Shown here in pieces: positions 28,312 through 53,603 of a DNA stretch of 64,000 bases. The notes beneath the pieces are model-generated. The model was not told the DNA's origin. It did not search any database and saw only the letters and a program-made list of their open reading frames with translations. Positions within the stretch are counted from its first letter, which is position 1. The number at the start of each line of letters is the position of its first letter. This DNA is from Candidatus Woesearchaeota archaeon (lineage in GTDB: Archaea; Nanobdellota; Nanobdellia; SCGC-AAA011-G17; JACPIM01), in assembly GCA_964513145.1 (NCBI GenBank), contig CAZELK010000005.1, positions 1 to 64,000 on the forward strand. Direction: 5' to 3'. Both the position numbers and the translations under genes were made by a program.

Positions 28312-29313
28312 ATGATAAAGATAGATGGGCAGCATTCTGGAGGGCAGACTTTACGTACCAGTCTAAGTTTATCAATTTTAACTCAAAAACCTTTCAAAAT
28401 AATAAATATAAGGGGCAAAAGAGAAAATCCTGGTTTGCAACACCAGCATTTGACAGCAGTTAATGCATCAAAAAACATATGCAATGCCAAAGTTAAGGGC
28501 AATGTATTACATTCTAAAGAACTTGAATTTACACCTTCCAAAGTTATTCCTGGAAGGTACAATTTTGATATAGGGAGTGCAGGTTCAACTACATTAGTTT
28601 TGGAAACACTTATGCCACCATTGTTATTTGCAAAAGAAAAATCAGTCTTGAAAATAATTGGAGGGACTTCGAATCCTTTAGCTCCACCAGCTCTGCATAT
28701 AAAAGGTGTTCTCTTATGGTATTTAAAAAATTTAGGCATAAATGTTGAAATCAATGTTGAAAAGGAAGGTTTTGTTCCAAAAGGCGGTGGAAGAATTTTA
28801 GCAAAAATTTCACCTTGCAAGAAACTAAAACCTTTGGACTTAACTGAACGAGGATCTTTAAATAAAATCTGTGTTTTTGCTGTTTCGTCACAAAGCTTAA
28901 GAGACAAAGATGTTGCAAGCAGATTGCTAGATGGATTTACCAAAGTTATTAATGATAATTTAGAACCACATAAACAATATGTTGAATCTTTGGATCCTGG
29001 TTGTTTTATTTCAGCTATTGCTGATTACAATAACTCCAGAATAGGATATACTAATCTTGGCACTTTGAAAGTTAAAGCTGAAGATGTTGGCAGAGAATGC
29101 GCAAATAAATTATTACTTGAAATTAATTCTAATTCAACTGTTGATTATTTTACTGCAGACCAATTATTGATTTACATGGCTTTGAGCGGAAAAGGCAGAA
29201 TAATTACAAGCCAAATAACAGACCATATAAAAGACAATATAGACATAATAGAGAAATTCCTGGATGTTAAATTTACAGTTAAAGATAATGAAATAAGTGT
29301 TGATAAAAAATAA
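28312..29313 (+). CDS. rtcA: RNA 3'-terminal phosphate cyclase
   Basis: GGQTLRTSL, NIRGKRENPGLQHQH, GSAGSTTLV, GFVPKGGG, ADQLLIYMAL, TDHI. Confidence 0.93.
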   Translation: MIKIDGQHSGGQTLRTSLSLSILTQKPFKIINIRGKRENPGLQHQHLTAVNASKNICNAKVKGNVLHSKELEFTPSKVIPGRYNFDIGSAGSTTLVLETLMPPLLFAKEKSVLKIIGGTSNPLAPPALHIKGVLLWYLKNLGINVEINVEKEGFVPKGGGRILAKISPCKKLKPLDLTERGSLNKICVFAVSSQSLRDKDVASRLLDGFTKVINDNLEPHKQYVESLDPGCFISAIADYNNSRIGYTNLGTLKVKAEDVGRECANKLLLEINSNSTVDYFTADQLLIYMALSGKGRIITSQITDHIKDNIDIIEKFLDVKFTVKDNEISVDKK

Positions 29314-29473: not shown

Positions 29474-30088
29474 ATGGAAATTCCTCCGTTTACAAATGAG
29501 CTTGCGGAATTTGTAGGTATTTTATTGGGTGATGGTTATATAAGTCAAAATGATTATGAAGTTAAGATTTCGCTTGATAAAATTAAAGATAAAGAGTATG
29601 TCTTTTTTGTAAAAAATTTAATTTTTAATTTATTTAATATTCAAGCTAAAGCCTATCCGCGTTCTTGTGATGGTACTACAGATATAAGAATATCTAATAA
29701 AGAGTTTCATCATTATTTAACAAATGGTTTAAAGTTACAACAATCTCCTAAATTTAATCGAGCTATTATTCCAAATGAATTTTATAATAAAGAATGCTTC
29801 TATCCTTTTTTATTACGCGGTTATTTTGATACTGATGGATGCATAACTGATACTGATAATAATGGCGTTAGATACCCAAGAGTTGAAATGAAAATATGTA
29901 AGTCTCCAATGCAATCTCAATATATAAAAATCCTTAAAAATTTAGGAATTAGATTTGGATCTTATAGAATCGAGAATGAGGCGATTAGAATACAAATCAA
30001 CGGTAAAAATGAATTAAAAAAATGGATGTTATTTATTGGTTCAGATAATCTAAAAAATATAAAAAAAGCACAAAATTTTAAAAAATAG
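29474..30088 (+). CDS. Free-standing two-motif LAGLIDADG endonuclease
   Basis: LAEFVGILLGDG and FLLRGYFDTDG; no intein splicing termini; TAG overlaps tRNA 3' end. Confidence 0.88.
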   Translation: MEIPPFTNELAEFVGILLGDGYISQNDYEVKISLDKIKDKEYVFFVKNLIFNLFNIQAKAYPRSCDGTTDIRISNKEFHHYLTNGLKLQQSPKFNRAIIPNEFYNKECFYPFLLRGYFDTDGCITDTDNNGVRYPRVEMKICKSPMQSQYIKILKNLGIRFGSYRIENEAIRIQINGKNELKKWMLFIGSDNLKNIKKAQNFKK

Positions 30089-30251
30089 CGGAGAGTGGAT
30101 TTGAACCACTGACCTAAACCCCAATATTTTTTTAGATATTGATCGGGTGTCTAAGACACGCATATGAGCCCATTCCGCTAATTTTACTTAGTGACGGACA
30201 CTCCTGGCTGTCCTATTGCAGTTGTAAGATTTTTTCTTAACAATCTCCGCT
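30086..30251 (-). tRNA. Initiator tRNA-Met(CAT) with four introns
   Basis: Exons 30251-30245, 30215-30193, 30171-30163, 30148-30143 and 30115-30086 join to a 75-nt cloverleaf with A1-U72, GGG/CCC anticodon stem and TTCAAAT T-loop. Confidence 0.9.
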
Positions 30252-30289: not shown

Positions 30290-31012
30290 TTATAAAATTT
30301 CGTATTTTTTTAACAATTGATTAAACCTATTTTCTAAGAAAGGTATTCTAAAACCTATCTCCTTAAATTTTTCAAAATTTTCTTTTCTATAGATGGAAAC
30401 TCTATACTGACCATTAGGTTGTTTTAATCTTGGTGCATATGTAAGATGAGAATTTATATCTATACTTTTTAATAAATTATAGATATCTTTAGCAAAAAAT
30501 TCATCTCCACTTACAAATCTTATTTCAGTAAGCTTCTTTAGAATTGTACCTTCCATATCAAAAGCTTGTTTTAAATATTCTATTTTTACTTTTTTTGGAG
30601 AATCAAATATCCAATTAGGAACACGCATTTGCTCATCTGATTTTGGAAGTTTAAGAATATAATATAAAAACCAAGCTAATGTTTTTGAGTTTACATAAAT
30701 TTGTTTACCTTTAGAATTTTCTTTTCTAAATAAGATTATTTTATTTGAGAAGAGTTTTATAATTAAATCATTAAATAATTCTATTTTTCTTGGGTCTTTC
30801 TTTTGATGAAAAAATGTTCGCATTAAATCTTTTATTAAACTACCATCTGGCATTAAACCCATTAGTGAAGATACATCTTCATTTAAAATAAATGGTAATT
30901 TAATAAAAATCGGTTTAGTCATATTAGAAACTTTTAATTGAAAATATTCTTCTTTTTGTTCTATCTTAAAATATTCTCTTAAATTATTTTCATTAATAGA
31001 TTTGTACTCCAT
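30290..31012 (-). CDS. Free-standing LAGLIDADG endonuclease-like protein
   Basis: SSLMGLMPDGS and YLKQAFDMEG motifs, RVPNWIF. Confidence 0.8.
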   Translation of the reverse strand: MEYKSINENNLREYFKIEQKEEYFQLKVSNMTKPIFIKLPFILNEDVSSLMGLMPDGSLIKDLMRTFFHQKKDPRKIELFNDLIIKLFSNKIILFRKENSKGKQIYVNSKTLAWFLYYILKLPKSDEQMRVPNWIFDSPKKVKIEYLKQAFDMEGTILKKLTEIRFVSGDEFFAKDIYNLLKSIDINSHLTYAPRLKQPNGQYRVSIYRKENFEKFKEIGFRIPFLENRFNQLLKKYEIL

Positions 31013-31141: not shown

Positions 31142-31314
31142 TGTCCAGTTCTTTTTTCTGAAAGATTTTTAGAGAAATCGGAAAGTTTACGAATTTACCG
31201 GAAGATTTACGATTTATTTGAAGAATGTTTGGAGTTTATTTTTTAAAAGTTATTAACCAAAAATTGAAATTGACTCGAAAAGTTTATATATCATTAATAT
31301 CATATAATTATATC

Positions 31315-31527
31315 ATGGCAGAAGTTAAAGCTATTATTCGAAAATGGGGGGATTCTCTCGCAATTATCATACCCAAAGATATTGCCAAATTAGAAAATAT
31401 GAAACCTAATCAAAAAGTAAATGTCATTGTGAAAAAAAATATTGACTTATCTGATTTATTTGGCAAATGGAAAACTAAAAAAACTGCACAAGATTTGAAA
31501 AATGAATCAAGAGAAGATTGGGTGTAA
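31315..31527 (+). CDS. AbrB/MazE antitoxin
   Basis: MAEVKAIIRKWGDSLAIIIPK; start set at ATG 31315. Confidence 0.9.
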   Translation: MAEVKAIIRKWGDSLAIIIPKDIAKLENMKPNQKVNVIVKKNIDLSDLFGKWKTKKTAQDLKNESREDWV

Positions 31528-31529
31528 CA

Positions 31530-31892
31530 ATGTATTTTTTTGATACATATGCGCTTTATCAATTAGCCAAGGGCGAAGAAAATTATAGTATATTTAAAAA
31601 TAATGCCGAGATAGCGACCTCCTTATTAAACTTGTATGAATTATATTATTCTTTATGCAGAGATAAAGAAGAAAAATTAGCGGAAGATTTTTTTAATCGA
31701 TTATTACCCTGCTGTTTAGATATTACTTCTGATGACATAAAACAAGCAGCCAAGATCAGATTAAAATACATTAAAAAGAAATTATCCTATATTGATGCTT
31801 TAGGTTATGCTCTATCTTGGAGGCAAAATATTTTGTTTTTAACTGGTGATAAGGAGTTTGAGAATTTAGAAAATGTTTATTTTTTAAAGTAA
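31530..31892 (+). CDS. PIN-domain toxin
   Basis: MYFFDTYAL, LSYIDALGY, FLTGDKEF. Confidence 0.9.
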   Translation: MYFFDTYALYQLAKGEENYSIFKNNAEIATSLLNLYELYYSLCRDKEEKLAEDFFNRLLPCCLDITSDDIKQAAKIRLKYIKKKLSYIDALGYALSWRQNILFLTGDKEFENLENVYFLK

Positions 31893-52247: not shown

Positions 52248-53510
52248 TTAACATAATAACCATCTCCAAACTGGGATAACTTTTATTAATTTATTTTTTA
52301 GTTTAATTTCTCTTTCGGCATCAGATGTTAAAATAACCCCCTCTTTTAGCTTGAATTTTTCCATTGCTTCCAATAAACCATTTATTTCTCTATCTTTATT
52401 TTCATCGTTTAATTCATAACAAACTTGAATTGCTTCTTTAATCTTGATGCCCTCCCTTATTAAGAAATCACATTCTCTCTTTTCTGAAAAATAATAAATC
52501 TCTTTTCCTTTTCTTTTTAACTCTATAAATACTATATTTTCTAAAAGTTTACCTTTATCTTCTGAGAATTTGAATCCCACTTCTTTCACGAACCCATTAT
52601 CAACACAATATAGCTTTCTAGGATTTTGAATTTGTTTTTTTAAAGAATAATCAAATTTATTAATAAAAAAGAAAATAAAAGCATTTTCGAAAGTTTCTAA
52701 AATTGATTTAACAGTTGATAAATTTTTTATCTCAATTATTTTTGACAAAGATCTTATACTTAATTCTTTGGAAATATTTGATAATAAGTAATTAGAAATT
52801 TCCTTAATTGGCTTTTCTAAATTCTTATTAAATCTCTTTATTATATCTCGATATAAAATACTCTCATATATCTCATGTAAAAGTCTTTTATCTTTATCTA
52901 TAATTACTTTTGGTATCCCCCCTAATGAAAAAAATTCTGAGAATTCTTTTCTTAATTGGGATTGGAGTTTTATATCGATTTTCCAATCATTTCTTTTTAA
53001 TTTTTTTGAATCTAAAAATTCTTTAAAACTGAATGGAAATAAATTATTACTTATCGACCTCCCAGTTAGGATTGTTGATATCTCTTTGCTTAATAGCTTA
53101 GAATTTGACCCGGTTATAAAGATTGTAAATTTTTCTTTTATTCTATCTACCCATTTCTCCCAATCTTTTGTTTCTTGTATCTCATCTATAAAAAAATAAC
53201 AATTTGTAAGATAATTTTGTTCATTTAAAAAATCTAATATTTTTTGAAAATCTTCGGCTGAAAAATCAATTAATCTTTCATCATTAAAATTTATATAAAA
53301 AAATTCTTTTTCTTTTAGTTTTAAATGATTTTTTAATATATATAACAAAGTTGATTTACCGCATCTCCGAACACCAGTTATAATAATTGGAAGTTTCAAA
53401 TGAATGAATGATAATATTTTTTTTGTTATCTCTCTTTCTACAAAATTAGACTGTATTTCAAATTCTTTTTGTTGTTCAAATAGAACATAATAAAGATCAT
53501 CCCTATTCAT
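52248..53510 (-). CDS. AAA+ ATPase with DUF4143-type C-terminal domain
   Basis: GVRRCGKST, FIDEIQ, TGSNS, KLYCVDNG, ENIVF.EL, ECDF. Confidence 0.9.
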   Translation of the reverse strand: MNRDDLYYVLFEQQKEFEIQSNFVEREITKKILSFIHLKLPIIITGVRRCGKSTLLYILKNHLKLKEKEFFYINFNDERLIDFSAEDFQKILDFLNEQNYLTNCYFFIDEIQETKDWEKWVDRIKEKFTIFITGSNSKLLSKEISTILTGRSISNNLFPFSFKEFLDSKKLKRNDWKIDIKLQSQLRKEFSEFFSLGGIPKVIIDKDKRLLHEIYESILYRDIIKRFNKNLEKPIKEISNYLLSNISKELSIRSLSKIIEIKNLSTVKSILETFENAFIFFFINKFDYSLKKQIQNPRKLYCVDNGFVKEVGFKFSEDKGKLLENIVFIELKRKGKEIYYFSEKRECDFLIREGIKIKEAIQVCYELNDENKDREINGLLEAMEKFKLKEGVILTSDAEREIKLKNKLIKVIPVWRWLLC

Positions 53511-53553
53511 TATTTTATGATATTTTATTGATTTATAAATCTTTTGATATGAT

Positions 53554-53603
53554 ACAATTTTTGTAACACTCTTTTTATAAAGTGTAACAATTTTTGTAAC
53601 ACT
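53554..53603. promoter_or_regulatory. 17-bp direct repeat upstream of AAA/DUF4143 gene
   Basis: ACAATTTTTGTAACACT at 53554-53570 and 53587-53603, with overlapping imperfect inverted symmetry. Confidence 0.55.

Follow-up and report, generated by a model that had tools for sequence, protein, structure and literature searches.

Cleavage by the endonuclease EndA followed by ligation by RtcB is the established route of tRNA splicing in archaea. Reviews of these introns, like tRNAscan-SE 2.0, give three as the maximum number per archaeal tRNA gene, and the main texts of the literature searched held nothing relevant on archaeal tRNA genes with four. Supplementary Data 4 of Valentin-Alvarado et al., 2024 nevertheless has columns for a fourth intron (PMC11291895); four introns are both predicted and observed there for Freyarchaeia Arg-TCT and Ile2-CAT, and four are observed for Leu-GAG and for Atabeyarchaeia Trp-CCA. 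These Asgard cases stand in the supplementary table alone and are not discussed in the text of that paper. The published record for the density of such introns is held by P. calidifontis, with 71 introns in 46 tRNA genes (PMC8450103).

The enzymes of the DPANN archaea were considered by Kaneta et al., 2018, who linked DPANN α4 EndAs that carry an 'L3' insert to more tRNA disruption (PMC5829648). In the same work the M. jannaschii-like α4 type is described as strict, and the tRNA sets of Woesearchaeota and Pacearchaeota are found to be incompletely predicted, such that hidden disrupted genes were suspected. For multiple introns in a single tRNA, splicing intermediates of Cyanidioschyzon merolae show that there is a preferred order of removal (PMC3728597).

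The gene described here lies in a window of 64,000 nt, the whole stretch of DNA that was analysed, on contig C5 of a genome of 977,603 bp (18 contigs, not closed, 29% GC, 98.8% complete). It is very probably a functional gene, and the only one for initiator tRNA-Met in a small DPANN archaeon, broken up by four introns which EndA and RtcB would remove.

The initiator tRNA gene and its spliced product

On the minus strand five GC-rich pieces alternate with four AT-rich pieces, and these correspond to the five exons and four introns of the gene (Table 1), with introns making up 91 of its 166 nt (55%). When the exons are joined, a product of 75 nt is obtained, which ARAGORN calls as tRNA-Met(cat) and which folds as a cloverleaf at -30.1 kcal/mol (ViennaRNA) with 21/21 cloverleaf pairs formed. 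The CAU anticodon follows U33 in a loop of 7 nt, U8 and a normal T-loop are present and CCA is not encoded. The first pair is A1:U72, and the anticodon stem contains three consecutive G:C pairs, G29-31:C39-41; together these are the defining marks of an archaeal initiator tRNA. On this predicted product the locus is confirmed as an archaeal initiator tRNA-Met gene, with a predicted role in methionine charging and initiation. The unspliced locus gave no match with ARAGORN or at the Rfam gathering threshold, the Rfam tRNA model reaching 21.7 bits in a match confined to the 3' part.

Table 1. Features of the initiator tRNA-Met locus and its surroundings (positions in the window)
Feature	Position	Strand	Length	Remarks
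RtcA, RNA 3'-phosphate cyclase	28312..29313	+		about 1 kb from the tRNA; Pfam PF01137
LAGLIDADG endonuclease ORF	29474..30088	+	204 aa	convergent with the tRNA; Pfam PF14528/PF03161
TTTTTT run	30080..30085	-		directly after A73; likely archaeal terminator, predicted
Initiator tRNA-Met gene	30086..30251	-	166 nt	five exons, four introns
Exon 5	30086..30115	-	30 nt	tRNA positions 44-73: variable loop, T-arm, 3' acceptor strand, A73
Intron 4	30116..30142	-	27 nt	site 43/44; central helix ACCC/GGGT, 4/4
Exon 4, ACCCGA	30143..30148	-	6 nt	positions 38-43
Intron 3	30149..30162	-	14 nt	canonical site 37/38; central helix CTCA/TTAG, 3/4
Exon 3, GGGCTCATA	30163..30171	-	9 nt	positions 29-37: anticodon-stem GGG and CAU anticodon
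Intron 2	30172..30192	-	21 nt	site 28/29; central helix TCCG/CGGA, 4/4
Exon 2	30193..30215	-	23 nt	positions 8-28: U8, D-arm, G26, start of anticodon stem
Intron 1	30216..30244	-	29 nt	site 7/8; central helix GCGG/CTGC, 4/4, one G-U
Exon 1, AGCGGAG	30245..30251	-	7 nt	positions 1-7, 5' acceptor strand
Candidate TATA box, TTTATAAA	30289..30296	-		38-45 nt upstream of tRNA position 1; predicted
Second LAGLIDADG ORF	30290..31012	-	240 aa	ends 38 nt upstream of the tRNA; Pfam PF14528

Intron motifs

The archaeal BHB rule consists of a 4-bp central helix and of two cuts, each 2 nt 3' of a helix strand and inside a 3-nt bulge. Introns 1, 2 and 4 each carry a hairpin, of 4+3 bp in intron 1, CTAA/TTAG in intron 2 and the 6-bp CAATAT/ATATTG in intron 4; the first two are without an outer helix and the last has an outer helix of 1 bp. 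Intron 3 is almost without an inner helix, uses the anticodon stem as its outer helix and has a C34-U mismatch within the central helix. The inner hairpins thus measure 4, 4, 1 and 6 bp and the outer helices 0, 0, 4 and 1 bp in introns 1 to 4, and the strict hBHBh' form, in which an outer and an inner helix close both 3-nt bulges, is seen in none of them. Introns 1, 2 and 4 are of the relaxed HBh' form and intron 3 is of the hBH form, both of which are known variants.

Shifting the intron boundaries never yields the same product. An aligner that permits introns only at sites obeying the BHB rule, given as reference the uninterrupted gene of a relative from another family (G022), returned exactly the same four introns, and such a constrained recovery with a reference from outside the family argues for more than chance. 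This aligner was used instead of plain spliced alignment, which misplaced short exons in 7/55 introns and ran into the flanks. Among 55 introns from 20 loci, the central helix has a mean of 3.4 out of 4 pairs, compared to 1.0-1.65 when its 3' strand is slid by 1-5 nt, and in an unconstrained parse of these loci it is complete (4/4) in 39 of the 55 introns and has three of four pairs in a further 9. The mismatch at C34 is also present in the 37/38 helix of a genome of the same genus (G001), there as C-A, a recurrence which suggests that it is tolerated rather than an error.

The pairing in intron 2 could be followed through evolution, as its BHB and hairpin are paired in 98.7% of cells in an alignment of 10 genomes, against 30-46% for slid strands. 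In four of its eight pairs both partners differ between genomes, as where TCCG:CGGA is replaced by TTCG:CGAA, and the covariation score was reached by 0/500 shuffles. The central helices of introns 1, 3 and 4 hardly vary among the relatives and carry no covariation signal; in the case of the 43/44 introns, the MAFFT alignment misaligned the hairpins.

The initial annotation of this DNA had read the locus as encoding an initiator tRNA-Met, interrupted by four introns of the BHB type (one of them at 7/8) and having an exon of 6 nt, and this reading is upheld by the cloverleaf, the orthologues described below and the constrained alignment. Its coordinates, lengths and sites for the introns were all correct, and the 75-nt product, the intron share of the gene, the four central helices with their one mismatch and the three clear intron hairpins were likewise reproduced by computation and measurement.

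Orthologues and intron variation across the order

In BLAST searches of 60 relatives, the starts of the matches coincide exactly with the proposed exon starts. In two genomes of other families, G022 and G043, the gene at the corresponding place is 75 nt long and uninterrupted, and it scores 63.9 and 62.0 bits, respectively, with the Rfam tRNA model (gathering score 29). The spliced product is identical to these genes at 68/75 and 64/75 positions, and all of the differences within stems are compensatory, including pairs whose partners lie on separate exons, at linear positions 5 and 70 (exons 1 and 5) and 30 and 44 (exons 2 and 4). Such compensation across exons indicates that the five exons evolve as one RNA.

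Parsing of a set of 21 genomes, this one and 20 relatives of the order, with the BHB-constrained aligner gave the same outcome throughout: once 0-5 BHB-compatible introns are removed, each yields a 75-nt product called as tRNA-Met(cat) by ARAGORN. The initiator gene is uninterrupted in 3 genomes, has one intron in 2, two in 1, three in 8, four in 6 (from five families and including this genome) and five in 1, G019. The 57 introns in total occupy 14 positions, which include 4/5, 7/8, 10/11, 15/16, 20a/21, 28/29, 29/30, 37/38, 43/44, 44/45, 53/54 and 59/60. Homologous introns are found at 7/8 in G003, G008 and G019, at the canonical 37/38 site in 15/20 relatives and at 43/44 in 7 relatives. The sets differ even within the genus, comprising 7/8, 28/29, 37/38 and 43/44 in G000, the D-loop, 37/38 and 44/45 in G001, and 7/8, the D-loop and 53/54 in G003.

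The five-intron gene of G019, which belongs to another family (locus L002, G019:C83, about 132-330), has its introns at 7/8, 28/29, 37/38, 53/54 and 59/60; all of their central helices are 4/4 and ARAGORN calls the spliced product.

Copy number and tRNA genes across the genome

The initial annotation had proposed a check for another initiator tRNA gene, and none was found when the mature sequence was aligned, with splicing allowed, to both strands of the entire genome. The locus described here is the sole initiator locus, at a score of 197, and the next matches score no higher than 122 and need 9-10 arbitrary gaps. Contig C7 carries a separate elongator tRNA-Met, which has three introns and is without the initiator marks.

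The interruption of tRNA genes is widespread in this genome, in which only 8 are uninterrupted. A partial census, made with 60 reference tRNAs from two relatives (37 anticodons), validated 27 tRNA genes with at least about 44 BHB-compatible introns between them, an approximate lower bound, with counts corrected by hand for mis-parses (spurious leading 'introns', Pro on C7 and Tyr on C16). The intron density of the genome is about equal to that of the record holder P. calidifontis. After such correction by hand, Leu-UAA (C6, near 53372-53554) reads as a second four-intron gene; three introns each are present in Ser-GCT, Leu-TAG and the elongator Met gene.

Many of the tRNA introns of the genome (C1-C17) share a hairpin of the form AAACTTTT...AAAAGTTT. 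Near 145720-145846 of C1 there is a two-intron tRNA gene whose spliced product is an Ile tRNA with the anticodon UAU, and AUA may be decoded in this organism without a CAU-type tRNA-Ile2.

Splicing enzymes

EndA is encoded by one gene (C7:33755-34318, 188 aa), and no paralogue or partner subunit was detected in the genome, even at E<=10. Its best matches are the α4 enzyme of M. jannaschii and the α subunit of N. equitans, and residues 42-188 align to the M. jannaschii enzyme free of gaps. The protein is predicted to be of the plain α4-like type; it is not of the (αβ)2 or ε2 type with a specificity loop, and it falls outside the Thermoproteales type in this respect. The 'L3' insert, sought from the text of Kaneta et al. 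(PMC5829648), was not located in it. A relaxed specificity of this EndA is plausible, and is a reasonable expectation because three of the introns are without an outer helix.

The gene for the RtcB ligase is also present, outside the window (C6:75200-78150), and its reading frame is interrupted. A piece of 33 nt with an in-frame TAG separates DGHWG from YGFPIGG and contains a BHB-like TGGG/CCCC helix and a GAAG/CTTC stem, and a piece of 11 nt changes the reading frame ahead of VGFDINC, the apparent start of an intein. Both pieces are candidates for BHB introns, here in the ligase's own mRNA.

Proposed processing and alternative explanations

We infer a route of processing in which a precursor of at least about 166 nt would be transcribed from the TATA-like box and would end at the T-run. 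EndA would then cut at the four BHB motifs to release introns of 29, 21, 14 and 27 nt, and RtcB would join the five exons to the 75-nt tRNA, to which CCA would be added afterwards. The candidate TATA box shares nucleotides with the stop codon of the second LAGLIDADG ORF, and a similar box is found upstream of an orthologue of the same genus.

The claim of the initial annotation that the helices compete with the cloverleaf is right, and they also compete with each other. The central helix of intron 1 takes up G2-G5 of the acceptor stem and that of intron 2 the 3' strand of the D-stem, and the central helix of intron 4 (A38-C41) and the outer helix of intron 3 (G29-31:C39-41) are mutually exclusive, as both need C39-C41. 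Since the BHB helices reuse nucleotides of the cloverleaf or of a neighbouring BHB, the precursor must pass through alternative conformations, and the four introns may be removed in a set order, as the initial annotation proposed. Base-pair probabilities from nearest-neighbour folding of 15 splicing states rise to 0.96 in some states for the helices of introns 1 and 4; for the central helices of introns 2 and 3 they are <=0.04 in every state, and no clear order of removal emerges from these values.

Several features count against processing by EndA and RtcB: the C-U mismatch of the 37/38 intron and its near lack of an inner helix, the three introns without an outer helix, which strict BHB recognition requires, a sole EndA of the α4-like, strict type (PMC5829648), the improbable helices of introns 2 and 3 in folding and the interrupted frame of RtcB. 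The gene might be real and yet lose some of its insertions by another route, at other boundaries, or after modification of the RNA or chaperoning by proteins; to this account belong the relaxed motifs, with outer helices of 0, 0 and 1 bp and an inner helix of 1 bp in intron 3, the single α4-like EndA with no detectable partner subunit and the low predicted probabilities of the BHB helices. We consider it unlikely, given that the proposed junctions are the only ones to produce a cloverleaf matching the uninterrupted orthologues, that no shifted boundary is equivalent, that 57 introns from 21 genomes conform to one cut rule, that the helix covaries, and that the literature links DPANN α4 EndAs to disrupted tRNA genes (PMC5829648).

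It is very unlikely that the locus is a decaying or non-functional copy with the working initiator tRNA elsewhere, be it unassembled or split in trans. An assembly of 18 contigs that is not closed, the frequency with which draft genomes miss tRNA genes and the mismatch in the 37/38 helix could all be taken in its favour, but the whole-genome spliced scan has no second locus at a completeness of 98.8%, and the 21/21 cloverleaf pairs and all of the initiator marks are intact. Differences from the orthologues are compensatory with all four BHB helices kept, most other tRNA genes of the genome are interrupted likewise, and a gene of the same kind is present in the 20 relatives. Next to no credence can be given to the notion that a GC-richer intergenic stretch resembles a tRNA by chance, after selective deletion, which might be read from the failure of ARAGORN and of the Rfam gathering threshold on the unspliced locus: the product shares 85-91% identity with bona fide tRNA genes in relatives, and the best noise match in the genome stays at or below 122 against 197. 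Chance resemblance is ruled out by this genome-wide gap in score together with the orthologue identity and the 21-genome parse. The reading as a functional initiator tRNA gene, with introns that EndA and RtcB would remove, is thus the one kept here.

Neighbouring genes

The TAG stop codon of the 204-aa LAGLIDADG ORF is the complement of tRNA positions 71-73, and the same arrangement is present in G009. In 7 genomes from 6 families, a free-standing convergent LAGLIDADG gene ends at most about 20 nt from the 3' end of the initiator tRNA gene or overlaps it, the other such loci being L005, L015, L020, G025:C11, G037:C50 and G046:C7. Homologues of these endonucleases are numerous in these genomes, and some adjoin other tRNA genes. 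The second LAGLIDADG ORF, on the other side of the tRNA gene, has an 83% identical homologue upstream of the tRNA in G003, of the same genus. The closest named relative of a gene neighbouring the tRNA is from a MAG labelled 'Nanoarchaeota archaeon'.

The vicinity of RtcA was examined as a conserved linkage with the tRNA and this was rejected, as there is no initiator tRNA near RtcA in three other genomes. Further along the window (31225-31892, plus strand), Pfam identifies an adjacent pair of a MazE-like antitoxin and a PIN-domain toxin.

Taken across the order, one might speculate, with considerable doubt, that BHB introns are rapidly gained and lost at the initiator tRNA gene, which would make it a hotspot (0-5 introns, 14 positions), that one insert-less α4-type EndA of relaxed specificity handles all of them, and that replacement of alleles may be driven by the LAGLIDADG gene found next to the 3' end of the tRNA (7 genomes, 6 families), by which intron-laden alleles would be spread or reshuffled.

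Comparison with known systems

An essential gene of this kind is missed by the standard tRNA finders, such that the genomes concerned seem to lack an initiator tRNA. The gene described here is among the most fragmented of tRNA genes, with a structure clearly validated by comparison: it has four introns, an exon of 6 nt and an intron right after the acceptor stem, and it occurs in a lineage with a simple α4-like EndA only, which bears on the co-evolution of EndA specificity and tRNA gene disruption. The series from 0 to 5 introns in one gene, varying inside a genus, is good material for the study of intron gain and loss in archaeal tRNA genes.

The statement in the initial annotation that up to three introns are described per gene agrees with the reviews and is outdated by the four-intron Asgard genes; since such tRNAs are already catalogued (PMC11291895), most of the novelty that it had attached to the number four, and which it had itself made dependent on a literature check, is gone. 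As in the present genome, the Asgard genes have four short BHB-type introns each, many non-canonical sites and exons below 10 nt, and nearly all tRNA genes are interrupted (PMC11291895). They differ in belonging to another phylum, in the EndA reported, which is of an L1-loop type, and in the isoacceptors affected, the Asgard initiator tRNA having three introns.

The Thermoproteales (Pyrobaculum, Thermofilum and Caldivirga) are similar in having BHB and relaxed-BHB introns at many positions and at high density, according to Sugahara 2008 as cited in PMC4033280 and PMC8450103, and in these accounts one intron can mask the motif of another and intron sequences recur across genes and lineages. The maximum published for them, as far as these citing accounts go, is three introns, and their EndA is a heterotetrameric (αβ)2 enzyme with a crenarchaeal loop, in contrast to the four introns and the single α4-like EndA found here. 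The initiator gene works like the multi-intron class of the Thermoproteales but in a different enzyme context.

In C. merolae, too, there are multiple BHB-type introns, with sites in the D-arm and T-loop as well as at 37/38 (PMC3728597); there the setting is a eukaryotic nucleus, no gene has more than three introns and the evidence comes from RNA experiments. The nearest comparison by lineage is with the DPANN EndAs of Kaneta et al. (PMC5829648), which come from the same superphylum and share the same EndA architecture, although that study ties relaxed specificity to the 'L3' insert and does not describe individual genes with four introns. The number four is in itself not new, and the gene lies at the upper end of the range known so far; its novelty is that of a well-supported case from DPANN which combines an α4-like EndA with an intron at 7/8 and an exon of 6 nt.
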